This document shows, in pieces, positions 6,800 to 62,772 of a DNA stretch of 64,000 nucleotides (positions within the stretch are counted from its first letter, which is position 1; each line of letters starts with the position of its first letter). The notes beneath the pieces were generated by a model. It was not told the origin of the DNA. It was given only the letters and a program-made list of their open reading frames with translations, and did not search any database. The position numbers and the translations under genes are program-made. This DNA is from Desulfosoma sp. (GTDB lineage: Bacteria > Desulfobacterota > Syntrophobacteria > Syntrophobacterales > DSM-9756), in the NCBI GenBank assembly GCA_037481835.1, contig JBBFKW010000012.1:14695-78694 (forward strand), in the 5' to 3' direction.

Positions 6800-8221
6800 C
6801 TAAAAAACATCGGCGGAAAACCGATAGATCTCCACATCGCCCCGCTTCCAGCTATCGGCCGGCAAGCCGGCCTTCTTGCACGTCCAGGAAAGAAACTCTT
6901 CCTTGCCCCAGCCGTGTTCCACGGCCACCTGGGGGAGCAGGAGCCCGCTGTGGTAGCCCTTTCGGACCACAAGGCCGTGGCGCCCGATGGAAAAGTCCAG
7001 CGGGTCCCGAATGCGTTCCAGAGGGCTCAAGGCGGAAATTTCCAGCCGAAGCTCCTCAAGTTCGTCGGCGCGCACCGGGGGAAAGCGCGGATCGGAAAAA
7101 GCCGCTTGGATGGCGGCGTCCTTGACGGTTTCCCAGAGCGATTTATGGGCTTCCACATACCCGATGCAGCCGCGAAGGGCGTCTCCCTTGTGCAGCGTGA
7201 CGAAGGCGCCGCGTTTTTCCAAAAGCCTGGGCGAATCACCCCGGTAGAAGGGTTCGGGCTCCCCCACGAGTTTCCAACGGATCGCCTGCCGGGCGATGTC
7301 CTTCAAGGCCTCCTTTTCCTCTTGGGAAAAGGCGCCCTCCTCGGACTTTTCCCGGCTCGCCGCCTCCGCGGGGCGAGCCCGGCCCTTTCCGGGATTATCC
7401 ACAACGGCGGCGGCCATGTAGCCCACCACACCGCGCACATCCCCGGTGACATCGCCCGAGTTGGCGTAGTGGAGCACCCGCGCCTTCGTCGCCCCCAGGT
7501 CCCGGGCCGCAAGGAGTGCGGTCACCAGGGGGCCGCCGCCGCAGGCTTCGCATTCGCGCTTCCTGAGCGCCTCGAAGAGCCCCTCCGGGTCGAACCGATC
7601 CACCAGTTCGATGACGCGGGCATCCAGTTTCTTGGCTTCCTGGTAGGCGTAGTAATGGGAAAGGTCCGTGCTGGCCACGAGCAGCACGTCGTCTTGGCCC
7701 ACGGCTTCGGCGACGATCCGGGCGATCCGGCGGCATCCGTCCAGCGACACGTCGCCGATGAGCACGGGGGTCATGTGAAAGGTGCCCAGGACCACCTGCA
7801 GAAAGGGCAATTGGATTTCCAGGGAGTGCTCCTGGGCGTGGGCCTGGGGAACATAGGAAAAGATGTCCTTGTGGACCATGAGCTTTTCGGCCAGGCGGCG
7901 ATCCACCGGAACCACCCCCAGGGGCGTGCGGTACCCCGCCGCATCATCCACGCTGGCTCCGTTGAAATAGGCGCGGTGGCTCGGAGCCAGGATCACCACG
8001 CGGCCGACGGGTTTGCCTTCCAAGAGCTTGTAAGCGTAGGCCGCAACTTGGCCGGAATACATGTACCCGGCGTGCGGGGCCACAAGAGCCACCAGGCGAC
8101 CGGACAGGGACGCCCCCGGCGCCCGGGACAGATAGCCCTGGATTTCTTTGCGGAGCTTTTCCGGATTTCCGGGATACCACGTCCCGGCAATGACGGATTC
8201 CCGAATCTTATCCGATCCCAT
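6800..8221 (-). CDS. AmmeMemoRadiSam protein B (MEMO1) fused to protein A (AMMECR1), cytoplasmic
   Basis: AGTWYP, PHAGY, PSH, EHSLEIQLPF, STDLSHY, ACGG, then GAFVTL, LRGCIG, DPRF, GLLLPQV, CKKAGL. Confidence 0.9.
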   Translation of the reverse strand: MGSDKIRESVIAGTWYPGNPEKLRKEIQGYLSRAPGASLSGRLVALVAPHAGYMYSGQVAAYAYKLLEGKPVGRVVILAPSHRAYFNGASVDDAAGYRTPLGVVPVDRRLAEKLMVHKDIFSYVPQAHAQEHSLEIQLPFLQVVLGTFHMTPVLIGDVSLDGCRRIARIVAEAVGQDDVLLVASTDLSHYYAYQEAKKLDARVIELVDRFDPEGLFEALRKRECEACGGGPLVTALLAARDLGATKARVLHYANSGDVTGDVRGVVGYMAAAVVDNPGKGRARPAEAASREKSEEGAFSQEEKEALKDIARQAIRWKLVGEPEPFYRGDSPRLLEKRGAFVTLHKGDALRGCIGYVEAHKSLWETVKDAAIQAAFSDPRFPPVRADELEELRLEISALSPLERIRDPLDFSIGRHGLVVRKGYHSGLLLPQVAVEHGWGKEEFLSWTCKKAGLPADSWKRGDVEIYRFSADVF

Positions 8222-8347
8222 GGCTCCCCCCTTCCTGGATGGACCAACACCTTCTTGCATCCCCACGCCCACTCTTTATAATGGCGCGCCGCCTGACGAT
8301 GGGCTTTTTCGCACCCTTTGCCTTTCAAGGAGCATCCCCGGTAAGAC

Positions 8348-21101: not shown

Positions 21102-21138
21102 AATCGTCGCCTCCTCAGCGAACCTACACGTTGGACTC

Positions 21139-25490: not shown

Positions 25491-25505
25491 GGCGACCTCC
25501 CGGGT

Positions 25506-26594: not shown

Positions 26595-26626
26595 AGGTGT
26601 GTACTCCTTTCGTGTAGATGGTCGAC

Positions 26627-28135: not shown

Positions 28136-28140
28136 CTCAT

Positions 28141-42739: not shown

Positions 42740-43357
42740 ATGGCGGTGATCACCATCAGCAAGGAATACGCGTCCCAGAGTGAGGAGTTTGCGAAAAAAC
42801 TGGCGGACCGTTTGGGCTACAGCATCCTGGACCGGCAAATCGTCGCCGATGCAGCCAAAGAACTGCGCATCAGCCCCAGCGAAGCGCAAAGCTTTCACAA
42901 GGAGCGGGAGTCCAAGCTCCTGCGCCTCATCGACCGCTACACGTCCAGCGTCGTTCAGAAGGTGGTGGACCGATCCTACGGTCGGCTGGACGACAAGAAT
43001 TACCACGAGGTCACCGTCAAGCTCGTCCAAAAGGTGGCCGACGAAGACAACGTGATCATCCTCGGCTGGGGCGCCCAGTGCATCCTTTCCAACCGTCCCA
43101 ACGCCATTCACTTGCGCATCGTCAAGACGCTGGAAGACCGCATCCGTTGGCTTCGCGAAAACATGGACATGGACGATCGTTCGGCGCGGGACCTCATCGA
43201 GCGTGAAGAAAAGGAATCCGCGGAATACGTGGAACATTACTTCAATCGCGCGTGGGACGATGCGCATTTGTACCACGCGGTCTTGAACCTGAGCCGCATC
43301 CCTTTGGATGAGGCGGTGGACTTGGTGGCCGGATGGATCGAGACCAAAAAATTCTGA
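42740..43357 (+). CDS. Cytidylate kinase-like family protein
   Basis: MAVITISKEY N-terminus, NVIILGWGAQ, YHAVLN; P-loop glycines absent. Confidence 0.75.
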   Translation: MAVITISKEYASQSEEFAKKLADRLGYSILDRQIVADAAKELRISPSEAQSFHKERESKLLRLIDRYTSSVVQKVVDRSYGRLDDKNYHEVTVKLVQKVADEDNVIILGWGAQCILSNRPNAIHLRIVKTLEDRIRWLRENMDMDDRSARDLIEREEKESAEYVEHYFNRAWDDAHLYHAVLNLSRIPLDEAVDLVAGWIETKKF

Positions 43358-44892
43358 CGCCTTTCAGAGGACTCCGGGGCCTTGGGGCCGCTTGTGTCGT
43401 CGCGGCGGCCGTCCTGGCGGCCTTCCCACAGGCCCTTGCGGCGTCGGCCTCCGCCTCGGACGGCGAGCCGGTTCGGCGATCCATCCTCGCCGGCACCTGG
43501 TACCCGGCGGATCCCAAGGAACTCAGGGCCACCCTCAGCGGTTTTCTCGAACGCGCCACGGTGCCGGACACGCTCCCTCCTCCCGATTCCCTGGCGGGGA
43601 TCGTCGTTCCCCATGCCGGCATCCGCTACAGCGGCGCCGTCGCCGCCCACGCCTACAAGGTCGTCCAGAAATCTTCCGTCCAAACCGTCGTCGTCCTCGC
43701 ACCCAGCCATCGCGTGCCCTTTTCAGGCGTTTCCGTCCACCGCCGAGGTCCTTTCGAAACCCCGCTGGGCCGGGTGCCTCTGGATACCGAACTCATCGAA
43801 GCGCTCATGGAGCTCGACCCGGACGTGCGCGACTTTCCCGAGGCCCACGCCCAGGAACATTCCCTGGAAATCCAACTGCCGTTCCTCCAAACCGTGCTCC
43901 CCTCATTCCGCTTGGTGCCTCTGGTCATGGGCAGCCTGTCCTGGACCACGTGCGAAAGGCTGGCTCAGGCCTTGAGCGTTCTATCGCGGTCCCGCCGTTT
44001 CCTCGTGGCGGCCAGCACGGATCTTTCCCACTACCACAGCGAAAAGGAAGCCAAAACTTTGGACCAGCGGCTTCTCGAGCGGCTGCGGCGGCTGGAAGCC
44101 CGGGAACTCATGGACGATGTGGCGGCCGGGAACTGCGAAGCGTGCGGCGCCGCCCCGCTCGTCACCCTCATGCTCTACGCCCGAACGGTGGGGGCGCACG
44201 ACATGCGGATCCTCAAATACGCCACCTCGGCCGACGTCACGGGAGAGACGAACCGGGTCGTGGGCTATGCGGCCGCCGCCGTGTATAAAAACTCCGGCGC
44301 CCCGGCGGAAGGATCCCAAGCCGTTCCCGCCAAGGCGGCATTCCCCCCTTCCCTCGGCGCGGAAGACAAGGCGCGCCTCAAGGACATCGCCCGGCAAACC
44401 CTCGTTGCCAAGCTCTTCGGAACCGTCCCTTCGCCCGATCTCACCCTTTCCGAACTGCCGCCGGCTCTTCGGGAACCGGGAGGAGCCTTTGTGACCTTGA
44501 AGCGGCACGGGCAGCTGAGAGGCTGTATCGGTCAGATCGAAGCCCGCCGGCCGTTGGCCCACACGGTTTCCCGGATGGCCCTGGCGGCGGCCTTTGAGGA
44601 CCCACGGTTTCCGCCCGTGACGGCCGACGAATGGAACGACCTGGAACTGGAAATCTCGGTGCTCTCTCCCTTGGAGAAACTCGACGACCCGACCCGGGTG
44701 CGGGTGGGCACCCACGGCCTGGTCGTGCGCAAGGGATCCCGAAGCGGTCTTCTGCTTCCCCAAGTCGCCGTGGAGCAGGGATGGGACCGGGAAACCTTCC
44801 TTCGCCAGACATGCCGCAAAGCGGGACTCCCGCCTGAGGCCTGGCAGGATCCGGATACGGAAATCTTCACCTTCACCGCGGAAGTCTTCTAG
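43333..44892 (+). CDS. MEMO1-AMMECR1 fusion (AmmeMemoRadiSam B+A) with N-terminal signal peptide
   Basis: Hydrophobic leader ...AAAVLAAFPQALA; AGTWYP, PHAG, EHSLE, STDLSHY, LRGCIG, DPRF, GLLLPQV. Confidence 0.9.
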   Translation: MDRDQKILTPFRGLRGLGAACVVAAAVLAAFPQALAASASASDGEPVRRSILAGTWYPADPKELRATLSGFLERATVPDTLPPPDSLAGIVVPHAGIRYSGAVAAHAYKVVQKSSVQTVVVLAPSHRVPFSGVSVHRRGPFETPLGRVPLDTELIEALMELDPDVRDFPEAHAQEHSLEIQLPFLQTVLPSFRLVPLVMGSLSWTTCERLAQALSVLSRSRRFLVAASTDLSHYHSEKEAKTLDQRLLERLRRLEARELMDDVAAGNCEACGAAPLVTLMLYARTVGAHDMRILKYATSADVTGETNRVVGYAAAAVYKNSGAPAEGSQAVPAKAAFPPSLGAEDKARLKDIARQTLVAKLFGTVPSPDLTLSELPPALREPGGAFVTLKRHGQLRGCIGQIEARRPLAHTVSRMALAAAFEDPRFPPVTADEWNDLELEISVLSPLEKLDDPTRVRVGTHGLVVRKGSRSGLLLPQVAVEQGWDRETFLRQTCRKAGLPPEAWQDPDTEIFTFTAEVF

Positions 44893-44902
44893 GAACACGG
44901 CC

Positions 44903-46075
44903 ATGGACCGACGCACGTTCTGCCGCACGCTCGCTGGATGCACCGCCTGGGCGCTGTGTGCGTCCTGGGCCGGCCCCGCCGTCCGATCCGCGGCCTCTTC
45001 CTCCCTTTCTTTCCAAAAGGGTTTCATCCGGCCCAAGGTTTCTCCCTACTTTACACCCTTGGGAAGCGGCCGGATCCGCTGCCTCCTATGCCCCCGCCTG
45101 TGCGAAGTGGACCCGGGAGAAAGGGGCTACTGCGAAGTGCGGGAAAATCGAGACGGCCTCTATTACACCCTGGTTTACGGCAATCCGTGCGCCGTCCACG
45201 TGGATCCGGTGGAAAAGAAACCCTTCTTCCACGTGCTGCCGGGAAGCCGATCCTTTTCTTTGGCCACGGCGGGCTGCAACCTGGATTGCAAGTTCTGCCA
45301 AAATTGGGAGATTTCCCAAGCCCGGCCTGAAAACACGCACAACGCCTTTCTTCCGCCCCAAGACGTCGTCGCCTCAGCCGTCCGATACGGCTGCGCCTCC
45401 ATTGCGTCCACCTACGTGGAACCCACCATTTTCATGGAATACATGACGGATATCGGAGCGGCCGCATCCCAAGCGGGGATCCTCAACGTCATGCATTCCA
45501 ACGGCTTCGTCAATCCCGGCCCGCTCAACGACCTCATCCCCAACCTGCACGCCGCCTGCATCGATCTCAAATCCATCCGGGACGACTACTACCGCGACAT
45601 GACCGAAGGATGGCTGGAGCCGGTTCTGAACACCCTCAAGGAACTGAAAAAACACCGGGTCCATACGGAACTGGTGACCCTGCTGGTACCGGGCCGAAAC
45701 GATTCGGATAAGGACATCCGGGACCTCAGCCGCTGGGTCCTGGAAGAACTCGGGGAAGACACCCCTTTGCATTTCAGCCGGTTCTACCCGCGCTACAAGC
45801 TCCAGAGCCTTCCGCCGACGCCCGTGGAAACCCTGGAAAGAGCTCGCGATACCGCAATGAAGGAAGGGTTGCGGTTCGTCTACATCGGAAACGTTCCGGG
45901 CCATCCGGGGGAACACACGTATTGCCCCACGTGCCGAACGGTCGTCATCCGACGGACGGGCTACGTGGTGCAGGCGGAAGCCTTCGAAAAAGGCCGGTGC
46001 ACCCGGTGCGGGACCCTTCTTCCCGGCATATGGACCAATCCGCTCAAAGCCTCCGGAGCGCCCGCAGGCTCATAA
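44903..46075 (+). CDS. AmmeMemoRadiSam radical SAM enzyme with Tat-like signal
   Basis: MDRRTFC leader; CLLCPRLC, DPVEKKP, CNLDCKFCQN (CX3CX2C), PLHFSRFYP, YIGNV, CPTC/CTRC. Confidence 0.92.
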   Translation: MDRRTFCRTLAGCTAWALCASWAGPAVRSAASSSLSFQKGFIRPKVSPYFTPLGSGRIRCLLCPRLCEVDPGERGYCEVRENRDGLYYTLVYGNPCAVHVDPVEKKPFFHVLPGSRSFSLATAGCNLDCKFCQNWEISQARPENTHNAFLPPQDVVASAVRYGCASIASTYVEPTIFMEYMTDIGAAASQAGILNVMHSNGFVNPGPLNDLIPNLHAACIDLKSIRDDYYRDMTEGWLEPVLNTLKELKKHRVHTELVTLLVPGRNDSDKDIRDLSRWVLEELGEDTPLHFSRFYPRYKLQSLPPTPVETLERARDTAMKEGLRFVYIGNVPGHPGEHTYCPTCRTVVIRRTGYVVQAEAFEKGRCTRCGTLLPGIWTNPLKASGAPAGS

Positions 46076-48365
46076 CCCACGCGCACCCCAGCACAGCCCC
46101 ATAGGCGAGAAAGACTTTCGGCACCCCGAGAAAGGGCACCAGGACCCACGGGGTCGCCACGGCGGCCGCGGCCGCCCCCAAAAGGTCCGTGCCGTAGAGG
46201 ATGCCGCCCACGGCGCCCCGTTTCAAGCCGACCCTTTCCCCGACAAGACACCCCAGGGCGAAATGGGCGCCTCCGAAAACGCCCGCACAAAACCCGAAAG
46301 CGGCGAATATTGAAAGAACCGCCCAGGACGGCCAGAGGCGGAGCGCCGCGAGCCCGCCGGTTTCCCATGGAAGAAACATGGCGCCGATAAAAAGGGTCGC
46401 CGCCCCGTGCACGCCGAGGAAACCTCGAACCTCTCCCAAGGCCGTTCCCCTCCCTTTCACGAAGGATCCCACGAGAAAGGCTCCCACTGAAAGCCCGGCC
46501 ATGCACATGGAAACGAGCACGGTGATGTGGGCGTAGAGCGCCCCGGCGACGATTTGGTAAAGGAAAAGGAGCAGGATTTGGAACGCCATCTGAGCCGCCC
46601 CCATGGCACCCACGGCCCCTGCGAGGGCCGCCTCGGGCCGGGTTTTCCAAAAAACCGCTGGACCCCCCAAAAGGAGAACAGATAGAGCCGCTGCGGCAAT
46701 GAGCGCCCACAACGGGCCGGGCGATGACTCCGGCCGATGCATGAACGCGGCAAGCCCTGGATGAAACTGGGCCGCCCACAGTCGGGATGCAGCGATGAAG
46801 CCCGCGGGATCCATGTCGCGGTTGATGTCGTTGCGGTCTTTTCGGACGGCGAGGGATCGAAAGTAGTCCAGGCGGAACGGATCGAGAAGATTGACCAGGC
46901 GGTCATGCCGGACATAGCGCAAGGCCAGGCCGAAACTTTCGGCCCGATGGGAAAGGGCCGTGGGATCTTCGGTAAGACCCTGCGGGTCCATGGAAGCCGC
47001 AAGGCGAATCCTTTCTCCGGGATAGACCACATGGGCGGGAAAAACGGAACGCAGGGTTGTCATCACGCCTCCGAAGTAGGCCGCCTGAGCCTCTCCCAGC
47101 ATGTCCTCGGCGCCGGAAACCGCGAAGCTGAAAAGACCGCCGGGTCTCAGCACCCGCGCCACGGATTGGTAAAATTCCCGGGTATGAAAACGGTTCGTGC
47201 CGAGGGAAAAAGGATCGCCTGCGTTCAGCAACACCACGTCGTAGGCCGACTCCGCCCTTTCCACAAAGCGCCGGATGTCCATGTCCCAGAGGAAAACCCT
47301 GGGATCGTCCCCGAAAGGCGGCGTCCCGGCCGCCGTCACCACGGCGGCGCACAGGCTCACTGTCTTGTCCGGATCGACCAGATCGATTCTTCGAATCCCC
47401 GGGTACCGCAGAATTTCCCGCACACCTTCAGGGCTCACCGGCCCGAGCACCAGGACAAACTGCGGATCCGGGTGCTGGAGCATGGCGAGGTGCACTGCGT
47501 CTTCGGCGCTCTGAGGATCGGGATAAGAAAAGAGCCACAACCCGTCGGCCATGAAAGACCACTGGGATTCCTGGCGCACGACGGCCGTGTTCCCATAGGG
47601 GCTGTCCACGACGGTGACGACCTCTCCTCCCCATTGCCACCGCCGGCTGGGCTTTTCCAAAACCGCGAAACCCGACACCGCAAGGAGCGTGAAGAGTCCT
47701 ATGAGAATGCAGCCGCCGCGGGCGGTTTTTGGAGCCTGGGCGGCGAGCGCCCAGAACCCCAAGGCGGCCAGGGCGGCTCCCAAAAAAGCGGCCCCGTAGA
47801 GCACAGGGAACCTGGGCGCAAGGAAAAGATAGAGCCAGATCCCTCCGAGGGCGGCTCCCAAGGCTTCCAAGGCGTAAAGGCGGAAGGTCCCTTGGGGCGT
47901 CCTCGCGAGGGCGGCGGTAAGAGACCATGCGCTTGCGAAAAAAACACCGAAAAAGACACAAACGGGCGCGGTCACTGCGGCGATCACCGCCACCGTGAGC
48001 TCCAGGGGGACCATTTCCCCCAGCCCGAGGCCGAAAAGGCGCCGGGACGCCCGGACCCACAGCACCGTCGAAGGGAGCAGCACCCCGTAGAGCGCAACCA
48101 AGACGAGAACGAAGCGAAGCCGAGCGGACGGTGCGGGAAAGAGCTTGGGGCACAGGCGCCCGGCCGCAAGGCTTCCCAAGCCCGTCCAAAAGAGCCAGAA
48201 GAAGAGCACGAGCCCGACGGTGAGCTCACTCCCGTAAAAGAGCGCCAGGCATTCGCGCAGGACGATGATCTGGGTCGCCGCGGCAGCGCACCCTCCACCG
48301 ACGATCGCTGGTGCCGGCACTCCGTCTTTCTTTACGAGATGCTCGGGGTCTTTCGCGCCCGTCAT
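46044..48365 (-). CDS. Membrane protein with spermidine-synthase-like SAM-binding domain (fused MFS/SpeE-like)
   Basis: QIIVLRE..GSEL, YALEALG, DSPYGN, central Rossmann-like region (NRFHTREFY), N- and C-terminal TM bundles, YGTDLLG. Confidence 0.75.
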   Translation of the reverse strand: MTGAKDPEHLVKKDGVPAPAIVGGGCAAAATQIIVLRECLALFYGSELTVGLVLFFWLFWTGLGSLAAGRLCPKLFPAPSARLRFVLVLVALYGVLLPSTVLWVRASRRLFGLGLGEMVPLELTVAVIAAVTAPVCVFFGVFFASAWSLTAALARTPQGTFRLYALEALGAALGGIWLYLFLAPRFPVLYGAAFLGAALAALGFWALAAQAPKTARGGCILIGLFTLLAVSGFAVLEKPSRRWQWGGEVVTVVDSPYGNTAVVRQESQWSFMADGLWLFSYPDPQSAEDAVHLAMLQHPDPQFVLVLGPVSPEGVREILRYPGIRRIDLVDPDKTVSLCAAVVTAAGTPPFGDDPRVFLWDMDIRRFVERAESAYDVVLLNAGDPFSLGTNRFHTREFYQSVARVLRPGGLFSFAVSGAEDMLGEAQAAYFGGVMTTLRSVFPAHVVYPGERIRLAASMDPQGLTEDPTALSHRAESFGLALRYVRHDRLVNLLDPFRLDYFRSLAVRKDRNDINRDMDPAGFIAASRLWAAQFHPGLAAFMHRPESSPGPLWALIAAAALSVLLLGGPAVFWKTRPEAALAGAVGAMGAAQMAFQILLLFLYQIVAGALYAHITVLVSMCMAGLSVGAFLVGSFVKGRGTALGEVRGFLGVHGAATLFIGAMFLPWETGGLAALRLWPSWAVLSIFAAFGFCAGVFGGAHFALGCLVGERVGLKRGAVGGILYGTDLLGAAAAAVATPWVLVPFLGVPKVFLAYGAVLGCAWVMSLRALRRL

Positions 48366-52877: not shown

Positions 52878-53011
52878 GTAGGTTGGGGTGAGCGCAGCGA
52901 ACCCCAACGGACCTCGGGTGTAGGTGTAGGTTGGGGTGAGCGTAGCGAACCCCAACGGTCCTCGGGTGTAGGTTGGGATGAGGAGCGCAGCGAACCCCAA
53001 CGGTCCTCGGG
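52878..53011. repeat. Cluster of three GTAG-type REP-like palindromes
   Basis: GTAGGTTGGGGTGAGCGYAGCGAACCCCAAC x3 with CGGTCCTCGGGT-type linkers. Confidence 0.85.
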
Positions 53012-54908: not shown

Positions 54909-55010
54909 AAACGTCTCGCCGATGCGTTAGGTATGCTCTTCAGTGGGATCTCGTGAAGCGTGGACCCCCCTGGGACGGACACGGCGGGGACGGTTGAAGG
55001 CGAAGAGGTG

Positions 55011-55988
55011 ATGGCGACGGCGCAGGCGGCACCAGGTTCCCCTCCAAAGCGCTTTCTCGTGCAACCCGTGATGATGCGGGTCGTCGTGGGATTGATTCCT
55101 TGTCTTTTCGGCGCGGTGCTCTTCTTCGGCCTGAGGGCCCTCGTGGTCACGGCCGTCGTTGTCGCCGCCGGGCTGCTCGCGGAAGCGGCCTTTACCCTGC
55201 GTCAAGGCAAACCCGTCACTTCGGCCGTCTTGGTCACGGGGCTCATTTACGCGTTGAGCCTTCCGCCCACGGTGCCGCTGTGGATCGCCGTCGTGGGTGT
55301 CGTCTTCGGGGTCGTCTTCGGCAAGATGGCTTTCGGCGGCTTCGGCTACAACATTTACAATCCCGCCATGGTCGGGCGCTGCTTTGTTTACATCAGCTTT
55401 CCCATCGCCTTGACCGCCGGGTGGATTTCCCCGTTCCAAAGCCTTTCTCAAGGCTTCGTGTCGTGGCTTCCTCCCGTGGATGCCGTCACTGCGGCAACGC
55501 CGCTTCGGCTGATCCACGCCGGTCAGGCCGTAGCCCTCAAGCCCCTCGTGTGGGGAAACATTTCCGGGTCCATGGGGGAAACCAGCGCCGTGCTCATCGC
55601 CCTCGGTGGTGCTTATATCCTTTACAAGAAGGCGGCCCAATGGCGTCTTGCCGCTTCCTGCCTTCTCGGCGCCTTCCTTACCGCTTCCGTTCTCTTTATG
55701 CTCAAGACTCCCGGCGTTCCGGATCCGCTGACGTTCATGATGGCCGGATCCCTCCTTTTCGGAGCCTTTTTCGTCGTCACAGAACCCATCAGCGGCCCGA
55801 AGACCAAACCCGCCCAATGGATCTACGGGCTCGCCATCGGGGCGCTGACCATCGTCTTGCGCCGCTGGTCCAATTTTCCTGAAGGCATCATGTTTTCCGT
55901 GCTCTTCATGAACACGTTCGTGCCGCTTTTGGACCGCGGCGTGCAGCAGTATCAAAAGAGGCTCGCGGCCAAAGGGGGCGCCTCATGA
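55011..55988 (+). CDS. RnfD/NqrB-family membrane flavoprotein
   Basis: FGGFGYNIYNPA, FMN site DAVTAATPL, GSMGETS, FPEG. Confidence 0.9.
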   Translation: MATAQAAPGSPPKRFLVQPVMMRVVVGLIPCLFGAVLFFGLRALVVTAVVVAAGLLAEAAFTLRQGKPVTSAVLVTGLIYALSLPPTVPLWIAVVGVVFGVVFGKMAFGGFGYNIYNPAMVGRCFVYISFPIALTAGWISPFQSLSQGFVSWLPPVDAVTAATPLRLIHAGQAVALKPLVWGNISGSMGETSAVLIALGGAYILYKKAAQWRLAASCLLGAFLTASVLFMLKTPGVPDPLTFMMAGSLLFGAFFVVTEPISGPKTKPAQWIYGLAIGALTIVLRRWSNFPEGIMFSVLFMNTFVPLLDRGVQQYQKRLAAKGGAS

Positions 55989-56626
55989 AAGGGCGTCTTT
56001 TTTCGGTGCTCTACATGTTTGTCTTGTCTTTGGTTTTCACGTCCGTGGTGAGCGCCCTCAACGTGCTCAACAAGGACCGCATTCGCCAAAACGAAGCCCT
56101 TCGGTTGCAGGGTTTGGTCCTGACCGTCTTGAACATCGGTCCTTCGGAAAAGGGATCGGCGGCGGAACTGGCTCAGCTTTTTTCCCGGCGGGTGCGGGAA
56201 GCCTCCCTCGGGGACCGCCCCTTGTACGTAGGGCTGGCCGAGGACGGAAAAACGGTCGTCGGCTATGCCTTCCCCGTCTCCGGCCCGGGTTTTTGGGGTC
56301 CCATCGAGGCCATGGTGGCCGTGGCCCCGGACATCCAAAAAGTTCTCGGGATCGCCTTCTATCGGCACAGCGAAACACCGGGCCTGGGCGGGCGCATCAC
56401 GGAAGCCTGGTTCCAGAACCAGTTCCAAGGACGGCCCCTGCAGGTGCCGCCCGCCGGGATGCGCTTCTTCTATCTCAAACCGCCGGGGACGGCTCACGGC
56501 CCTACGGAATTGGATGCCATCACCGGGGCGACGGAGACGAGCCGCCGCCTGGAAAAATTTTTGGACGAAGAACTCAAGAAAACCATTCCCCTCTTGTTGG
56601 ACCAGAAAGCGAGGAGCCGCGTTTAG
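55985..56626 (+). CDS. NqrC/RnfG-family FMN-binding subunit
   Basis: N-terminal TM, GFWGPI, ETPGLG, DAITGATETS. Confidence 0.9.
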   Translation: MKGRLFSVLYMFVLSLVFTSVVSALNVLNKDRIRQNEALRLQGLVLTVLNIGPSEKGSAAELAQLFSRRVREASLGDRPLYVGLAEDGKTVVGYAFPVSGPGFWGPIEAMVAVAPDIQKVLGIAFYRHSETPGLGGRITEAWFQNQFQGRPLQVPPAGMRFFYLKPPGTAHGPTELDAITGATETSRRLEKFLDEELKKTIPLLLDQKARSRV

Positions 56627-56628
56627 GT

Positions 56629-57243
56629 ATGGCTTCCCCCAAGGCACGAACCATCTTTCGAAAAGGCGTCTGGGACGAAAACCCGGTCTTTCGCCAGATT
56701 CTCGGCATCTGTTCCGCCCTGGCCGTCACGAACCTCATGACCAACACGTTGATCATGGGGTTGGGACTGATTTTCGTCACGGCCATGTCCGGCGCCACGG
56801 TGTCCGCACTGCGAAAGATCACGCCCGATCGGATCCGAATGATGGTCCAGGTGCTCATCATCGCCTCCTATGTCATGATGGTGGACATCTTCCTCCAGGC
56901 CTACCTGCCGGACATCAGCAAAGCCCTCGGGCCCTATGTGGGCCTGATCATCACCAACTGCATCATCATGGGACGGTGCGAAGGCTACGCGCGGGTCAAT
57001 CCCGTGTGGCCTGCCTTCCTGGACGGGATCGCTTCAGGGACAGGCTATGCCCTGGTGCTCCTGGCCATCGCCTTCATTCGGGAACTGCTCGGCTTCGGGT
57101 CGGTTTTCGGTATCCGCGTGCTCCCCGAAGGATGGGTGCCTTGGACCATCATGGTCATGGCCCCTGCGGGGTTTTTCATGCTGGCGGTGTTCATCTGGGT
57201 CGCCTACAGTGTGGAAAACCGAGCGACCCGGAAAAGAGGCTGA
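56629..57243 (+). CDS. NqrD/RnfE-family subunit
   Basis: ENPVFRQILGICSALAVT, VGLIITNCIIMGR, IRELLG. Confidence 0.9.
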   Translation: MASPKARTIFRKGVWDENPVFRQILGICSALAVTNLMTNTLIMGLGLIFVTAMSGATVSALRKITPDRIRMMVQVLIIASYVMMVDIFLQAYLPDISKALGPYVGLIITNCIIMGRCEGYARVNPVWPAFLDGIASGTGYALVLLAIAFIRELLGFGSVFGIRVLPEGWVPWTIMVMAPAGFFMLAVFIWVAYSVENRATRKRG

Positions 57244-57410
57244 GCGCCGCGGGAGCCTTCAGGCGCCCTTCCGGGCCCGTGCGACGACCGAATGAGCCTG
57301 AAACGCGCGGGGCTCTTCCGGCAAAGGCGCTTCGGCGGCAGGCCGCACGGAGGCCGAGGCCGCCTCACCAAAGGACGAATGGCGCGGCTCTTTCGCTTTG
57401 AGGACATGCC

Positions 57411-58004
57411 ATGGAAAGTTCGTTGAACGCCCCGGTCATCTTTTTTGCCTCGATTTTTACCAACAACATCCTTTTGGCCAACTTCCTGGGCATGTGCTCC
57501 TTTCTGGCGATCTCCCGGGAACTCTCGTCGGCCGTGGGGCTCGGAGTGGCCGTCACCTTCGTCATGACGTGCACCACCGCTTTGAACTACCTCGTCTACC
57601 ACTACCTCTTGGTTCCTTTCGACCTGGTCCATTTTCGCTTCATCGCCTTTATCATCGTCATCGCCGCCTTCGTGCAGCTTGTGGAAATGCTCATCGACCG
57701 CTACTCCCCCCGCTTGTACGTCGTCTTAGGCGTTTTCTTACCGCTCATCACCGTCAATTGCGCCATTCTCGGCGTGTGCCTCTTTATGGTCATCCGCAAG
57801 TACAACTTCATCCAATCGGTGGCTTATGGTTTCGGGGGCGGCCTGGGCTGGCTCCTGGCCATCGCGGCCTTGGCCGGGATCCGCGAAAAACTCAAGAAAG
57901 CCCCCATCCCCAAGGCTCTCGAAGGCCCCGGCATCAGTCTCATTGCGGCCGGGCTTATGGCTCTTTCCTTCATGGCCTTCAGCGGCATGATCCAAGTCGG
58001 GTGA
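57411..58004 (+). CDS. NqrE/RnfA-family subunit
   Basis: FLGMCSFL, FLPLITVNCAILG, AGIREK. Confidence 0.9.
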   Translation: MESSLNAPVIFFASIFTNNILLANFLGMCSFLAISRELSSAVGLGVAVTFVMTCTTALNYLVYHYLLVPFDLVHFRFIAFIIVIAAFVQLVEMLIDRYSPRLYVVLGVFLPLITVNCAILGVCLFMVIRKYNFIQSVAYGFGGGLGWLLAIAALAGIREKLKKAPIPKALEGPGISLIAAGLMALSFMAFSGMIQVG

Positions 58005-58014
58005 GGCGGCGTTC

Positions 58015-59118
58015 ATGGTGACCTTGGTGCTGGGACTTCTGTCCCTGAGCGGCTTGTGCGCTTTCCTTGCGCTGCTCTTGGAAGCGGCTCACGCCGTTTT
58101 CGCCGACTACGGGCCGTGCCGGATTTCCATCAACGACGGAGCCAAGGACCTGAACGTCAAGGGGGGAGGACGCCTGCTGGGAACGCTCATGGACCAAGGG
58201 ATTTTCATTCCATCGGCGTGCGGCGGTCGAGGAAGCTGCGGCTTATGCAAGGTGAGGGTTCTGGAAGGCGGAGGCCCGATCTTGCCTACGGAAACGCCGT
58301 ACATGAGCGTTGAGGAAATTGCCGACGGAACGCGGCTGTCCTGCCAGGTTCGGGTGCGCACGGACCTTGTCATTCAGATTCCCGAGGCGTTTTTCCTCAT
58401 CAAGGAGTTTCGAGCCCGGGTGGTCGGTTTGAAGCCTCTGACGCCCTTCATCAAGGAAGTGCACCTGAAGCTCGTGGATCCGCCTGAAATCGTTTTCAAG
58501 CCCGGACAGTTCATTCAGTTCCAGGTCCCCGAGTACGAAGGGTCGCCGGAGCCGGTCTATCGAGCCTATTCCATCGCTTCGCCGGCCCGGCTCAAAAATG
58601 AAATCAAGCTGGTCATCACTCGAGTGGAACGGGGCGTCGCCACCACCTATATCCACACCCTGCTGAAGGAAGGGGACGAGGTCCGCATCAACGGCCCGTA
58701 CGGTGACTTTTATCTGCGGCATTCGGAGCGCGAAATGATCATGATCGGTACGGGTTCGGGCCTGGCCCCGCTCATGTCGATCCTCCACCAAATGGCCGAC
58801 GAAAAGATCGATCGTCCCTGCACACTCTATTTCGGCGTCAAGAGCCGCCAGGATCTCTTTTACCAGGACGAAATCCACGAATTGGCAGGGAAACTCCCCC
58901 GCTTCCGCTACGTGCCCGTCCTGTCGCAGCCCCTTGCCGAAGACCGGTGGGACGGCGAAACGGGTTTTGTCACCGATGTGGTCGCTCGGGACGTCACGGA
59001 CGGATCCCGCCTGGAAGCTTACCTTTGCGGGAATCCATTGATGATCAACGCCGCCGTAAAACTTCTCATGGAACGCGGTGTGACCGAAGACCGCATCTTT
59101 TTCGACAAGTTCGGCTGA
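58015..59118 (+). CDS. nqrF: NqrF-like NADH-oxidising subunit (TM + 2Fe-2S + FAD/NAD)
   Basis: SACGGRGSCGLC..RLSC, RAYSIAS, GPYG, GTGSGLAP, YLCG, FFDKFG. Confidence 0.85.
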   Translation: MVTLVLGLLSLSGLCAFLALLLEAAHAVFADYGPCRISINDGAKDLNVKGGGRLLGTLMDQGIFIPSACGGRGSCGLCKVRVLEGGGPILPTETPYMSVEEIADGTRLSCQVRVRTDLVIQIPEAFFLIKEFRARVVGLKPLTPFIKEVHLKLVDPPEIVFKPGQFIQFQVPEYEGSPEPVYRAYSIASPARLKNEIKLVITRVERGVATTYIHTLLKEGDEVRINGPYGDFYLRHSEREMIMIGTGSGLAPLMSILHQMADEKIDRPCTLYFGVKSRQDLFYQDEIHELAGKLPRFRYVPVLSQPLAEDRWDGETGFVTDVVARDVTDGSRLEAYLCGNPLMINAAVKLLMERGVTEDRIFFDKFG

Positions 59119-59149
59119 TAGGGTGCGCAAACGGAGGAGTCCGCCCAAT

Positions 59150-59626
59150 ATGGGACGTTATCCCGTCTATCAGAGCCCCCAACTGGATGCGGTGGAAAGC
59201 CGCCTGCGCCGTTCCGGCGATCCGCACGGTTATCTGGCTGGCGATCCGAGGCCGCTCATTACGGTCCTCACGGAAGACGATCGGGCTGTGAAGGCCTTGG
59301 GACTGACCCATGAGGCCATTGCGGCTCGGCTGCGCGCCTTTACGGACGCCGCCAAGAGCGCCTTCGGGGGGCCCGTGGTGGTGGAAGGGCTTTGGAGGGT
59401 GCACCTCGAAGATTTTCGCGGACGTCTGCCCTGCCCGTGGGGACACCCGGGGCTCTATCCCAAAACCCACGTGCGCCTGGAACGGCTCGACACCGGGGAA
59501 ACCCTGCAGTGGACCGACCTTTCCCTCCACATGATCGAAGCCCACGGGTTTTACCAGGGGCTCGGAAGCCCGTACCGTCTGGACCCGGAAAGGGTCGCAG
59601 CCCTCTGCGCCATCGTTCCCCAATAG
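59150..59626 (+). CDS. Hypothetical protein with CPWGH and HMIEAHGFYQG motifs
   Basis: GGAGGAG RBS; immediately follows nqrF on the same strand. Confidence 0.7.
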   Translation: MGRYPVYQSPQLDAVESRLRRSGDPHGYLAGDPRPLITVLTEDDRAVKALGLTHEAIAARLRAFTDAAKSAFGGPVVVEGLWRVHLEDFRGRLPCPWGHPGLYPKTHVRLERLDTGETLQWTDLSLHMIEAHGFYQGLGSPYRLDPERVAALCAIVPQ

Positions 59627-59711
59627 GCGGTCGCGGTCCCGGAACTTTGCCCGCGCAACCCCGCGTTGCTCTCATTCGGTTTTCGACATGACTTCCCGCG
59701 GGTCCAGGGCA

Positions 59712-60770
59712 TCATTCCACGAGCCTTACGCCTTGGGCGGCAAGATGGCGCTCGTCGAGAGGGTACGCCTCCCGAAAGCCTTTTGAAACCCTTAGAGCCA
59801 GTTCTTCCCCCTCCCCTTCCGTCACAATGGCCGCGTGGACGCCGGGAAGGGATTCCGCGAGGGCCAGCCCCTCTTCCGGTCCGAGGACCAACATGCCTGT
59901 GGCCAGCCCGTCGGCATAGGCGGCGCTGGAAGCCACCACGGTGACGCTCGCCGTTCTTTGGGCGGTCACGCCGCTTCGAGGGTCGACGATGTGGCTGTAG
60001 CGCTTCCCGTCCACGAGGAAGTAGCGCTCATAGTCGCCTGAGGTGACCACGGCCTTGTCCGTTAACGGGAGTGCGGCGAGGAGCTCCTGCGGATTTCGGG
60101 GATGACGCAGCCCGACCCGCCAGGGTTGGTTCCCGGGCTTTTTGCCGTAGGCAAAAACATCTCCGCCCGCGTTGACCAAAGCCGCTTCAATCCCCCGCTC
60201 TTTCAGCACCGCCACGGCCCGGTCGATGGCATAGCCCTTGGCGATGCCGCCCAAATCCAGGGCCATCCCGGAAACGGCGAAGGAGACGGTGCGCTCTTGC
60301 GGCGACAAGTTCACAAGCCCATAGCCGACGCGGCGCAGGACCTCCCGAATTTCTTCAGCCGAAGGGACCCTTTTTTCCGGTGCGTAAAACGGCCACAGCT
60401 TCATCAAGGGCCCCACCGTGATATCGAAAGCGCCTCGGGTGGTCCGGGAAAGGGCGAGAGCCATTTTGATGACCTCAAAGAGTTCGGGCGAAACCCGAAC
60501 CGGCCGGGAAGAAGCTTCCCGGTTCAGCCGGCTGAGCTCGCTGTCATCCCGAAAGGCGCTCATCATGGCTTCCAGGCGCGCCATTTCTTCAAAGGCGGCC
60601 TGAAGGGCCAAAGAGCCGTGCCGGGGGTCGCCGGAAACCACGCTGATTTCCACCACGGTCCCCATGAGCGGCTTGGCGACCTTCTCCACGTCCGCTTTGG
60701 GCGCGCATGAAATGGCCCAAATCGGCACAAGGATCCCCACGAGCCCTTTAAAAAAAGGCGACATTTTCAT
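59712..60770 (-). CDS. apbE: FAD:protein FMN transferase, probable lipoprotein
   Basis: Lipobox-like AISC, MGT, GAFDITVGPL, DLGGIAKGY, NAGGD, TSGDYER, SHIVDPRSG, ADGLAT. Confidence 0.93.
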   Translation of the reverse strand: MKMSPFFKGLVGILVPIWAISCAPKADVEKVAKPLMGTVVEISVVSGDPRHGSLALQAAFEEMARLEAMMSAFRDDSELSRLNREASSRPVRVSPELFEVIKMALALSRTTRGAFDITVGPLMKLWPFYAPEKRVPSAEEIREVLRRVGYGLVNLSPQERTVSFAVSGMALDLGGIAKGYAIDRAVAVLKERGIEAALVNAGGDVFAYGKKPGNQPWRVGLRHPRNPQELLAALPLTDKAVVTSGDYERYFLVDGKRYSHIVDPRSGVTAQRTASVTVVASSAAYADGLATGMLVLGPEEGLALAESLPGVHAAIVTEGEGEELALRVSKGFREAYPLDERHLAAQGVRLVE

Positions 60771-60902
60771 TACGCACCTTCTATCCGATTTGCGGAACCT
60801 ACCATTGTCGTACTCCCCTTGAGGACGAAGAGAGTGTAATGTGCTTGGAAAAGCTCCGAGCAGGGACCAAACAAACGAAAACTCAAAGAAGGGATTGAGG
60901 TC

Positions 60903-61613
60903 ATGAACCGATTTTCGGCCATCGGGACCGAGCGCGGGGTGGATCTTTTCGACAGGGTGCTGGGGCTGCTGGAGGCCTGGGCGCCTGAGCGCCTCGCTTT
61001 GGATGAAAATCCCATCGCCTTCAGTTCGCTGGTGCACATGCGGACGGCTTCGGAACTTTTTTCGGAAGAATTTCTCGTCCACCAGAAACAACAAACCCTC
61101 CTGCGCGGGGGCGACGTGGGGACCATCGCCGCCCTGGTCTATGCTCTCCGGCACGGGTCCGTGCCCGTCCATTTCGCCGACGGCGCTCCCGGAGAGATCC
61201 TTTCCCCGTCGGGAGACCTCATCGGCGCCTACCCTTATGTGGGCGATGCGGCCTTCGCCGTGGAAACCGACATGATGCGGGCGCCCATCGAACTCATCAA
61301 ACAGCGCATCCCGCGCTATCCCGGCCGCGACTTCGACTACGAACTCATCCACGCCTACCAGGTGGAAGCCCCGGAGCCGCTCATGGACCGGGCCCTTCCC
61401 GTGCGCAATCGGTTTACGGCTGAGGTCATCAACGGGATCATGGAAACTTACGACGGAGAGCTCCTCGTCTTCGTCGGGCTGAGAAAGCGCTTCCGAAAGG
61501 AGCTCTTCGCCGCGACCGAGGGCGTCCTCCCCGAGGATGTGGAAAATTTCATCCCCCTGATGGACCTCATCCGATCGGACAACAAAACCTTCGTGGACCT
61601 CATGGAAGGCTGA
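60903..61613 (+). CDS. Hypothetical protein
   Basis: GAGG RBS, host-like codon usage, no family recognised. Confidence 0.65.
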   Translation: MNRFSAIGTERGVDLFDRVLGLLEAWAPERLALDENPIAFSSLVHMRTASELFSEEFLVHQKQQTLLRGGDVGTIAALVYALRHGSVPVHFADGAPGEILSPSGDLIGAYPYVGDAAFAVETDMMRAPIELIKQRIPRYPGRDFDYELIHAYQVEAPEPLMDRALPVRNRFTAEVINGIMETYDGELLVFVGLRKRFRKELFAATEGVLPEDVENFIPLMDLIRSDNKTFVDLMEG

Positions 61614-61683
61614 CCCGCTGGAGCTCGAACTTCGCGATGGCGCCTTTTCCCTGGAAGTCCGGACCCGAAGCAGGGACCGTCTT

Positions 61684-62772
61684 TCATGCGGGCCAAGAAT
61701 CCGCACGACGGGGATTGCTGATGCGGGCCGCCGTCTTCCCATCCTCGGCAAGCCGATTCACATACCGGCGAAGATGGGGAAAATCGGACCCGGGAGGTCC
61801 GTTTAGAAGCTCTTGCAAGCGGTTCCATCCCCCGGGGATGTGTTCCAAGAAATCCGGCTTTGCCTTGACGCCTCCGAGGAAGGCGAAGGCCGCGAGGCAT
61901 TGGAAGCACCGGCACAGAGCCGCAGCGCCGAAGCGCTGAGCGAACCGTTCTTCGCCCGCTCCAAGAAAATCGTGCGCCGCATGCCAATACAACTGCCTGA
62001 GATCCTCCCTAAACGATAAAGGAAGCATCGCGTAAGGATCCAAAAGGAGGGCCGCCAGGTCGTATTCCGGCGGCCCGAAACGCATCCCCTGAAAATCGAT
62101 GATCCACAGCGATCCGTCGCAGACCATGAGGTTTCGGCTTTGAAAATCCCGGTGAAACACCAGGGCGCCGCGGTCCTCCCCCGCCTTTTCCGAAAGTCGC
62201 CGGAAGTCACCGTCCACGTCCTCGGGGATGGTCTCGAGACCCAGAAATCCTTGGAGAAAGGCGCGCCGGAAGTACTGCAATTCCCGTTCGTAGACAAAAC
62301 CGGGATCATAACGGCTCCCGTCATGGCACCATTGGGGAAGGAAGCCTTCCCGAGCGCTCCGATGGCACTGGGCTAAAAGCAAGACAGCCTGACGGTACAA
62401 GGCCGCAAGATCGGCGTCCGGCACCTTTTTTCGCACCAAATCGTAGAGGTGGACGGATCCCAGATCCCGGAAAACGAAGACACCCCGGCGAGGATCGCCG
62501 TGAAGGACGGGCGGCACGGGAAGGCCCGCCCGGTGCAGATGTCGGCCGATGTGCCAGACGGCGTCGTTTTCGTCCACCGGGTCCTTCTTTCGAGGGCTCA
62601 CCAGGACCACATACGTCTGGTTTGCATCATGAAAGCGGAAAAAGCGCCGATCCGATCCATCCCCTGCAAGAGGGACCAAGCGTCCCGAAAATGGGCCGTA
62701 CCCCCACTGTCTGAGAAGCTCGGAGACGGCGTCCAAATCCACTGCCTGAAGTGCGGAAACGTTTCCCCCCAC
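61684..62772 (-). CDS. Aminoglycoside-phosphotransferase-fold kinase (AmgK-like)
   Basis: LAGDGSDRRFFR, DLG, HRDFQSRNLM, IIDFQ, YDLAALL. Confidence 0.85.
   Translation of the reverse strand: MGGNVSALQAVDLDAVSELLRQWGYGPFSGRLVPLAGDGSDRRFFRFHDANQTYVVLVSPRKKDPVDENDAVWHIGRHLHRAGLPVPPVLHGDPRRGVFVFRDLGSVHLYDLVRKKVPDADLAALYRQAVLLLAQCHRSAREGFLPQWCHDGSRYDPGFVYERELQYFRRAFLQGFLGLETIPEDVDGDFRRLSEKAGEDRGALVFHRDFQSRNLMVCDGSLWIIDFQGMRFGPPEYDLAALLLDPYAMLPLSFREDLRQLYWHAAHDFLGAGEERFAQRFGAAALCRCFQCLAAFAFLGGVKAKPDFLEHIPGGWNRLQELLNGPPGSDFPHLRRYVNRLAEDGKTAARISNPRRADSWPA

Follow-up and report, generated by a model that had tools for sequence, protein, structure and literature searches.

Radical SAM enzymes depend on three things that are normally cytoplasmic: SAM, a strong reductant and a reduced Fe-S cluster. 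One family of these enzymes belongs to the AmmeMemoRadiSam system, which is described by the models TIGR04335 (AMMECR1), TIGR04336 (Memo) and TIGR04337 (radical SAM enzyme, AmrS) and for which, to our knowledge, neither a function nor a biochemical activity is established. In the parts of the literature drawn on here, MEMO1 is described as having no known primary molecular function (PMC11081632) and modification of RNA bases is the standing proposal for AMMECR1 (PMC2034487; PMC4075521). The nearest solved relative of the radical SAM profile is the pyruvate formate-lyase (PFL) activating enzyme (PDB 3c8f; TIGR02493; E 7.5e-17). Literature searches yielded no paper on an exported radical SAM member, on a bacterial SAM exporter or on the system presented here.

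A stretch of 64,000 nucleotides from Desulfosoma sp., in the following called the window, contains adjacent genes that match all three models above the cut-offs with intact catalytic motifs. What appears to be new compared to the known trio is that both polypeptides carry predicted leaders, that an MFS-SpeE partner with a predicted outer docking site is co-inherited and that the genome has a leaderless paralogous set. The features are as follows:

42740..43357, + strand: cytidylate-kinase-like gene (PF13189), judged to be a local neighbour
43333..44892, + strand: Memo-AMMECR1 fusion (AmrB-AmrA), 519 aa, with profile matches and conserved motifs
43333..43440, + strand: predicted Sec/SPI signal peptide of the fusion, with a basic n-region, an h-region at residues 19-31 and ALA at residues 34-36
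44903..46075, + strand: radical SAM enzyme AmrS (TIGR04337), 390 aa, related to PFL-activating enzymes
44903..44995, + strand: predicted twin-arginine (Tat) signal peptide of AmrS, DRRTFC, based on pattern and conservation
46044..48365, - strand: MFS-SpeE-like membrane protein, convergent, 773 aa, predicted 14 TM helices
46722..47654, - strand: predicted outward-facing spermidine-synthase-like domain, residues 238-548 of the MFS protein
6800..8272, - strand: second Memo-AMMECR1 fusion of the same genome, leaderless, internal control

Genes of the locus and the leaderless paralogues

The fusion matches the Memo model with residues 48-317 (279.7 bits, cut-off 26) and the AMMECR1 model with residues 349-519 (193.5 bits, cut-off 99). 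Alignment to MEMO1, using the ligands given in the part of PMC11081632 drawn on, shows that H94, H126, D230 and H233 are retained, of which H94 and H126 count among the metal ligands together with C271; C271 takes the expected place of MEMO1 C244, as placed by motif only. The AMMECR1 part carries RGCIG (396-400) and DPRF (423-426), in agreement with the expected RGChG and DxRa pattern. The radical SAM gene begins 10 nt past the end of the fusion gene. AmrS reaches 362 bits against TIGR04337 (cut-off 220) and only 52 bits against TIGR02493 (equivalog cut-off 232). Its CxxxCxxC motif is formed by C125, C129 and C132 (45275-45298), and unlike the PFL activating enzyme it has a signal peptide as well as additional conserved cysteines in an N-terminal (C60, C63, C67, C77) and a C-terminal group (C341, C344, C366, C369). 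The second fusion is 49% identical to the exported-type fusion and lacks a leader; the leaderless radical SAM counterpart is encoded on another contig of the genome (C17, 104378-105394). The same genome thus holds a leader-bearing and a leaderless AmmeMemoRadiSam set.

The gene of the membrane protein is convergent, its stop codon (46044-46046) resulting in a 32-nt overlap with the 3' end of the radical SAM gene, and most likely starts at the ATG at 48365, which matches the start of the closest orthologues. With 14 predicted TM helices and a match to PF01564 this bears out the preliminary description, which had reported a convergent, overlapping multi-TM protein with a SpeE-like domain. An Rfam search of the window gave no match, and a promoter and terminator scan revealed nothing exceeding shuffled sequences. 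The upstream cytidylate-kinase-like gene (PF13189, 159 bits) shares 25 nt with the beginning of the fusion gene and lacks P-loop glycines, as had been noted (SKEYASQS compared to SREYGSGG in a distant family member); features of an active kinase were not found (TIGR02173, 20.8 bits, cut-off 102). A part in the system is not supported for this gene: it adjoins only 7/20 fetched relatives, all in the window's own family, which points to local synteny, and among the matches listed for 80 GTDB loci there is one distant match about 8 kb off.

Leaders and predicted export routes

Leaders were assessed by regular expression, hydropathy and conservation. For the fusion, a hydrophobic Sec-like leader ending in ALA and the absence of an alternative start after 43333 had been proposed. 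Both hold: the single hydrophobic 19-mer of the protein covers residues 19-37 (KD 2.02), ALA is at residues 34-36 and codon 1 is the sole ATG/GTG/TTG within codons 1-57. The leader is also conserved, since the Memo partner carries a hydrophobic leader in 46/46 export-type loci compared to 2/11 leaderless-type loci. Likewise, AmrS begins with the twin-arginine-like MDRRTFC recognized earlier, with no further in-frame start before the TTG at codon 53. As a chance control, the RRxF-plus-h-region pattern was found in 12 of the 8083 open frames of the genome, AmrS among them, and most of the other positive frames resemble ordinary Tat substrates by eye. The RR motif is present in all 20 orthologue loci fetched and in 110 of the top 120 AmrS homologues, the remaining ten being gene calls that start inside or past the leader. 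AxA-type cleavage sites accompany the RR leaders, the AmrS leader is likely cleaved near A30-A31 judged from its sequence, and tatC was found in this genome. Seven homologues carry a CxxCH insert ahead of the core.

Across 80 GTDB loci, 42 leaders were classified as Tat and 13 as Sec-like, while 5 loci are split, 19 leaderless and 1 is cut off. One leader, at locus L087, carries RRDML and was assigned by eye. In the radical SAM tree, from which 20 near-duplicate rows were dropped, the export-type group has an SH-aLRT of only 73 and contains a single triple fusion without a leader (L111). TatC was detected in 29/32 RR-leader genomes tested, in 6/6 split-type genomes and in 2/13 Sec-leader genomes. 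As the 11 Sec-leader genomes without detected TatC are MAGs of 0.8–4.1 Mb, its absence is not proven, and TatC was likewise not found in 3 RR-leader MAGs. If TatC is indeed missing in Sec-leader genomes, the Fe-S enzyme would there mature outside or be tethered otherwise.

Such tethering could be the general rule: the leaders might merely hold the radical SAM enzyme at the cytoplasmic face, with the MFS protein moving the product out. Thirteen loci have hydrophobic leaders without RR and mostly no detectable TatC, which fits this, as do the split forms, in which a leaderless core is accompanied by a separate membrane-anchored peptide. Moreover, we know of no established Fe-S assembly outside the cytoplasm. 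Against it, the RR leaders track TatC and have AxA-type cleavage sites. A separate small ORF with a Tat-like signal follows the leaderless export-type cores directly downstream in 10/10 cases inspected, and CcdA-like DsbD_2 genes, in which two PC cysteines are conserved, adjoin 11/13 Sec-leader loci compared to 0/86 others. Tethering is regarded as improbable and export of AmrS remains the preferred reading.

In split relatives the small ORF is barely more than a signal, usually plus one strand of the passenger. A strand profile on these donor segments scored mostly weakly (E 2e-4 to above 1), so that homology of the donor strand rests mainly on position and motif. Split-gene junctions were inspected for programmed frameshifting; stops and starts overlap there, and no slippery run was evident. 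This arrangement resembles the Tat hitchhiker export of hydrogenase and formate dehydrogenase, where, according to the part of PMC10924467 drawn on, a signal-less subunit is exported with a signal-bearing partner. It differs in that the predicted carrier of the split relatives is a small, near-signal-only ORF; at the window locus the hitchhiker arrangement is not found.

The leaders also bear on the possibility that the trio modifies RNA bases and that the leaders are incidental. This follows the published contextual prediction for the AMMECR1 family, as given in the parts of PMC2034487 and PMC4075521 drawn on. RNA is no normal periplasmic substrate, and leaders on both proteins are conserved across many phyla, tracking TatC; for the exported set this alternative is extremely improbable. 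For the leaderless set the RNA-base prediction may still hold.

The membrane partner and its predicted docking

An AF2 model from a 47-row alignment reached a pLDDT of 87.5 and a pTM of 0.88 (single-sequence model: pLDDT 43). It predicts an MFS N-half (6 TM), TM7, an outer domain, TM8 and an MFS C-half (6 TM), i.e., two six-helix bundles in the MFS fold with both termini inside. A Pfam search of the protein sequence gave no MFS match. The preliminary description did not mention a complete MFS transporter fold. The model superimposes on VMAT2 (9kqa) with Z 32.2 and an rmsd of 3.4 Å (347 aligned residues over model residues 8-773). Compared to the MFS carriers VMAT2, VAChT (8zmr) and SotB (6kki), with which it shares the fold at 10–13% identity, the window protein has two extra helices bearing the 300-residue outer domain. 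Conserved polar residues lie within the helices or next to them (Q32, R37, E38, E47, W57, Y164, E167, Q604, Y611, Y724, D727). N-terminal helices followed by a SpeE-like domain are also common to the fused MFS/spermidine synthase NF037959 (19.6 bits, cut-off 40, reached by the relative P0157 with 41.5 bits) and to the membrane polyamine aminopropyltransferase PRK03612 (113.5 bits, cut-off 472). Here, a second MFS half past the domain would result in a full 12+2 helix transporter, and the catalytic Asp is replaced. P0157 itself had been considered as a radical SAM-MFS fusion and was rejected as a frameshift artefact, as its radical SAM part is out of frame at both ends.

The SpeE-like domain is predicted to face outward. 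Loops that are cytoplasmic with the N-terminus inside contain on average 20.2 K+R compared to 9.4 in the outer loops, with the same direction in 47/47 sequences. This answers the topology check proposed for the SAM-type domain, and an outer position of the predicted docking domain in all 47 sequences also argues against mere tethering of AmrS at the cytoplasmic face.

The outer domain adopts the SpeE fold in the model (1uir: Z 28.4, rmsd 2.5 Å, 273 aligned; TM-score about 0.7 by target) and retains the acidic residues D331, D333 and D363. An active membrane-bound transferase for aminopropyl or methyl groups, modifying polyamines or lipids in a pathway with the trio, could be suspected from the fold, the PF01564 match and the below-cut-off matches to PRK03612 and TIGR00417. 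The first Asp of DxxDP and the acid of GGG[DE]G, which we take to be functional residues of spermidine synthase, speak against it. The former is replaced by N381 in this copy and is Asn in 25/47 family members, Asp being outside the five commonest residues. The latter is present in the two soluble SpeE proteins of the genome and mostly missing in the membrane family, with GPVSPEG at this site in the window. A working transferase is very improbable. The degenerate glycine loop reported earlier was found in this copy (VLGPVSPEG, 47424-47450) and is not a family-wide property, since Gly occupies position 309 in 27/47 and position 310 in 24/47 sequences. As the loop is degenerate in this lineage, it is less certain that this copy binds SAM.

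The expected co-occurrence with the membrane gene was observed in neighbourhoods collected from the radical SAM side: the MFS gene is present in 38/38 export-type relatives, non-adjacent in 11 of the 38, compared to 3/23 others. Across phyla, 60/61 genomes with an export-type enzyme contain it, the exception (G069) giving no MFS match. Of 251 genomes of the phylum, 87 carry both markers, 5 only the radical SAM enzyme, 8 only the MFS gene and 151 neither. This count is a score proxy, as 2/20 late-starting matches checked were canonical leaderless enzymes, and in all these counts kin are not independent.

Moreover, modelling predicts the outer SpeE-like domain to be a docking site for AmrS. The complex model of both proteins scored 0.69 compared to 0.02 for the best of 3 controls; the mark applied is reached by 116/157 solved complexes and 2/215 mismatched pairs, a calibration that carries over only roughly to the alignments built for this analysis and to riding ligands. 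At least 90% of the contacts are common to the runs, with a partner pLDDT of 81–82. The predicted docking site comprises residues 265-283, 421-428 and 483-505 of the outer domain and takes in AmrS residues 133-137, directly after CxxxCxxC. L303, a further predicted interface residue of AmrS, is Leu in 65/74 export-type sequences; at this position Arg is the most frequent residue of canonical sequences (10/31).

With the same location and partners, the MFS protein might instead mainly recover 5'-deoxyadenosine, MTA or SAH, or move substrate or product, while SAM is supplied otherwise, e.g., by loading the enzyme prior to Tat export or by scavenging. Import is the usual task of outer binding domains. 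The domain here retains the acids 331, 333 and 363 with a glycine loop that is variable and lost in this copy, and the closest MFS folds, those of amine, choline and drug carriers, do not indicate SAM. However, a predicted interface at AmrS 133-137 suits hand-over at the active site, and an enzyme with only pre-loaded SAM would presumably turn over once. This alternative role is considered unlikely, and SAM supply by the MFS transporter is given a slight preference.

Proposed mechanism and implications

Export of the enzymes and their partnership with the membrane protein are very likely. The earlier suggestion, namely activity of both catalytic parts beyond the cytoplasm together with a membrane protein that handles SAM or substrate, is in line with the leaders, the TatC tracking, the co-occurrence, the predicted topology and the complex model, and none of the counter-findings named with it appeared where computation could reveal them. 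Here, leaders, intact motifs, co-inheritance and leaderless paralogues are read from sequence, and transporter fold, outward domain and docking from structural models. The whole explanation, an envelope-facing AmmeMemoRadiSam copy with exported enzymes and a docking MFS transporter likely supplying SAM, is judged to be fairly probable. AmrS would be exported folded via Tat and the Memo-AMMECR1 fusion via Sec. Exported AmrS would dock on the outer SpeE-like domain of the 14-helix MFS transporter, which may feed SAM to it, SAM export probably being coupled to the return of 5'-deoxyadenosine or methionine. The AMMECR1 cysteine and the Memo metal site would serve to modify or repair the substrate. 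The leading candidate, though at odds well below even, is a protein-bound or small sulfur- or metal-linked group that occurs on both sides of the membrane, in preference to RNA.

Electrons might arrive via a trans-membrane conduit, which was not identified in this genome and may be of NapH/FMN-type, DUF362-linked or CcdA-type in other lineages. In the 20 fetched relatives, a distance of about 8 kb around the system contains no conduit, and no glycyl radical enzyme was seen among recurring neighbours. In other lineages FMN_bind plus Fer4_5 and DsbD_2 domains are encoded next to the system or as fusions with the MFS protein; these domains are shared with extracytosolic electron conduits of the flavinylated NapH-like and DsbD types (PMC8238504), a work whose main text, as far as drawn on, does not mention Memo, DUF362, spermidine or radical SAM. 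A Tat-DUF362 and polyferredoxin pair on contig C4 was rejected as electron donor, because it does not track the system; the unlinked Tat-DUF362 gene is present in 56/61 relatives and serves as a negative control.

At a chance slightly below even, radical-SAM chemistry beyond the cytoplasm is carried out by many bacteria by means of a docking, SAM-exporting MFS protein. The export route would then have been rewired between Tat in cis, Tat on a small hitchhiker lending the first strand, and Sec with a CcdA-like reductant without TatC, the latter needing Fe-S assembly beyond the membrane, and the Memo/AMMECR1 substrate would not be RNA.

About one third of the sampled genomes of the phylum carry the system, as judged from both markers. 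The exported set is dispensable, as it was lost in some members of single genera, and it is separable from the cytoplasmic set. The exported copy furthermore constrains the Memo/AMMECR1 question, as acting on RNA would not be easy for it. Should this reading be right, the system would reveal how radical chemistry is powered in the envelope, and a chemistry regarded as cytoplasmic would move there.

Leaders of the radical SAM enzyme and of the Memo-AMMECR1 fusion

The closest named homologues carry the label Desulfosoma sp. The genes of the region are arranged as follows.

Genes in the region of the putatively exported AmmeMemoRadiSam system
42740-43357, +, cytidylate-kinase-like gene (PF13189, profile match)
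43333-44892, +, Memo-AMMECR1 fusion (profile match)
44903-46075, +, radical SAM gene (TIGR04337, profile match)
48365-46044, −, convergent membrane gene, 3' end overlapping the radical SAM gene end by 32 nt

The preliminary description had proposed genuine leaders on the fusion and the radical SAM enzyme, and these proved conserved as judged by sequence pattern and hydropathy rather than SignalP/TatP. Among 30 relative loci, an RRxF-type motif begins all 12 radical SAM enzymes 58-81% identical to that of the window, and 12 of 18 at 42-47% identity start leaderless, the remaining six being not clearly displayed. The RR motif was found in 20/20 orthologue loci taken with wide flanks and in 110 of the top 120 homologues in the database; in the other ten, gene calls begin within or past the leader. 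As a chance control, the pattern was run on the 8083 open frames of the genome, of which 12 fit it. Moreover, a hydrophobic leader is present on Memo in 46/46 export-type loci vs 2/11 leaderless-type loci. A CxxCH insert (haem-c-type motif) lies between radical SAM leader and core in L072, L079, L081, L094, L138, L161 and L166 and is absent from the window's enzyme.

The genome encodes tatC, two ordinary soluble SpeE genes and a second, leaderless set: a Memo-AMMECR1 fusion at 6800-8272 of the window (49% identical to the 43333-44892 fusion) and a radical SAM enzyme on contig C17 (46% identical to the window's). Contig C10 encodes a third protein of the Memo family, which stands alone and is extended at its N-terminus (G000 C10:111887-113212). 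At four loci (L034, L040, L045, L048) a TrkA-domain potassium channel gene lies directly 3' of the radical SAM gene, probably reflecting local synteny.

Elsewhere, the window holds a CRISPR array with a 37-nt repeat (12686-13233 and 16162-18881), apparently interrupted by an insertion of IS21-type genes (istB and Mu-like transposase, 13578-15933) between its two segments, adjacent cas genes (19038-28342: cas4, cas1, cas6, cas3 and a DevR/Cas7-like gene), and tandem copies of a REP-like short imperfect palindrome (1-145 and 52878-53011).

The membrane partner and its co-inheritance

The AF model of the membrane protein, from a 47-sequence alignment (pLDDT 87.5, pTM 0.88), predicts 14 helices matching MFS carriers over the whole length, as with VMAT2 (Z 32.2, rmsd 3.4 Å, 347 aligned), with an insert of SpeE fold (1uir, Z 28.4) after helix 7. 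With loop limits set by hand from the model, loops cytoplasmic for an N-in MFS carry on average 20.2 K+R vs 9.4 on the opposite side, a bias of the same direction in 47/47 sequences, so that the SpeE-like domain is predicted outside. The degenerate glycine loop described earlier holds for the window lineage and some others but not family-wide, since about half have GGG. Within this domain, D333 (45/47) and D363 (46/47) are kept, the first Asp of DxxDP is replaced by Asn or another residue, and across the family GGG[DE]G has mostly lost its acidic position. In terms of SpeE enzymology, this would suggest adenosyl binding without aminopropyl transfer.

Furthermore, a complex model placed the radical SAM core on the outer domain with a score of 0.69 vs 0.02 for the best of three controls; runs agree in ≥90% of contacts (partner pLDDT 81-82), and the score mark is reached by 116/157 solved complexes and 2/215 mismatched pairs, counts that are only approximate here. 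Contacts centre on radical SAM residues 295-310, 96-102 and 133-137 and on partner W277; L303 is Leu in 65/74 export-type enzymes, and among 31 canonical ones the most frequent residue there is Arg. No solved close relative of the enzyme was found, the best being PFL-AE, so the prediction is unlikely to reproduce a known complex. Binding of the core to the outer domain is a prediction that this model supports.

The predicted co-occurrence of both genes was borne out. In a set of 61 relatives that includes the window's genome, an export-type radical SAM enzyme (≥395 bits vs ≤357 for others; leaders read for 25, three being RK variants) is present in 38 and a full-length membrane gene in 41: 38 have both, three the membrane gene only and 20 neither. 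In 11 of these 38 the two genes do not sit within 10 kb of each other, and joint absence is seen within genera g8, g14 and g15. An unlinked Tat-DUF362 gene, used as control, does not track the system, being present in 56/61 relatives. In 251 phylum genomes, overlapping the relatives by at least eight and classed by a score proxy, 87 have both, five the enzyme only, eight the membrane gene only and 151 neither, i.e., 87 vs 13 single; a proxy check of 20 late-starting matches gave 14 RR/RK leaders, four split and two canonical. Across phyla (best 80 of 599 confirmed stretches), the membrane gene lies within 2.1 kb at 35/61 export-type loci, and for 25 of the remaining 26 it is encoded at another site in the genome; it is near 0/19 leaderless loci, and the three of these 19 genomes that have it each encode a second, export-type enzyme.

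Split signals and export machines

In the same best 80 of 599, 42 loci have Tat leaders, 13 Sec-like, five split, one is cut off and 19 are leaderless. At first sight, leaderless export-type cores speak against export; a small ORF with a Tat-like signal lies directly 3' of the radical SAM gene in 10/10 inspected (L059, L090, L097, L099, L109, L139, L159, L163, L165, L168), with RR in eight, RK in L097 and KR in L090.

Examples of small Tat-like ORFs
L059:4801-4944
L097:6380-6604
L139:7539-7763
L090:3331-3594

In 8/10 the ORF terminates in, or close to, a motif that looks like the first strand lacking from the enzyme, a homology with weak profile scores. A comparable motif closes a separate upstream peptide with a membrane anchor in L090, L097, L139 and probably L159, and the C-terminus of MFS-SpeE fusions in L099, L109 and P0169-P0171; it was not seen on those of L165 and L168. 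The ORFs are candidate minimal hitchhiker adaptors, and the cores of split types might leave the cytoplasm as Tat hitchhikers and then be captured at the membrane. Heterodimer hitchhiking via Tat is established, according to the accessible part of PMC10924467.

The leader type follows the export machine. Across 51 genomes (32 of 42 Tat loci, all 13 Sec-like and six split loci), TatC was found in 29/32 Tat-leader, 2/13 Sec-leader and 6/6 split genomes, these being MAGs of unknown completeness and related genomes not being independent; it was detected even in Tat-leader or split-type genomes of 0.6, 0.9 and 1.1 Mb. Next to 11/13 Sec-leader loci vs 0/86 other classified loci lies a CcdA-like (DsbD_2) gene or domain in which two PC cysteines are conserved, by a profile built from nine of those same Sec-locus sequences. 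These 11 (L055, L056, L069, L077, L078, L082, L084, L088, L089, L100, L105) lie in genomes mostly without detectable TatC, where Fe-S assembly might have to occur outside the cytoplasm, and DsbD_2 may reduce cysteines of the Sec-exported apoprotein.

Spread, electrons and substrate

Among the matches listed, the records with export types bear the labels Thermodesulfobacteriota, Acidobacteriota, Omnitrophota, Planctomycetota, Myxococcota, Nitrospirota, Zixiibacteriota, Chloroflexota, Bacillota, an Aenigmatarchaeota archaeon and others. The Aenigmatarchaeota record L106 (0.6 Mb genome) is an archaeal MAG with a Tat-type enzyme, an MFS-SpeE gene and tatC. In a tree of radical SAM cores without leaders (85 of 105 rows), a weakly supported branch (SH-aLRT 73) sets the export types apart, together with a leaderless triple fusion; a single origin is compatible with this tree. 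That fusion, a radical SAM-Memo-AMMECR1 protein (L111:9983-12385) nested within export types, possibly represents a return to the cytoplasm; a search of its genome for MFS-SpeE gave no match.

Regarding electrons, DUF362 genes adjoin 15/42 Tat loci and, wherever their start could be read, mostly bear an RR leader themselves, and FMN_bind/Fer4_5 domains occur in neighbour genes or fused to the MFS protein at other loci; neither was found within ~8 kb of the system in 20 close relatives. About 6.5 kb from the system, the window encodes an Rnf/Nqr-like operon with an ApbE gene (54960-61751; RnfD-type, Rnf-Nqr membrane subunit, NqrF-like ferredoxin reductase), a possible candidate for the electron source.

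The substrate is the weakest step of the explanation. In their accessible parts, PMC2034487 and PMC4075521 predict RNA base modification for the AMMECR1 family, and PMC11081632 gives the iron ligands of MEMO1, for which it reports that dioxygenase activity was not detected. That one genome encodes parallel sets, one inside and one putatively outside the cytoplasm, suggests a target shared by the two compartments; for the exported copy this would speak against RNA.

In the literature as far as accessible, AmmeMemoRadiSam receives annotation mentions only, and the accessible portions of PMC8238504, PMC6393860, PMC3924187 and bioRxiv 10.64898/2026.08.21.746120 do not describe the system; members may sit in gene-cluster tables of PMC8238504 or the Tat dataset of PMC10924467. 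No publication describing this transporter or the export of a radical SAM enzyme was found in mainly open-access main texts, and the exported variant is apparently unpublished. The variant, which belongs to a known orphan system, is real and widespread, and computational evidence from sequences and models converges on a predicted envelope localization and a membrane partner.
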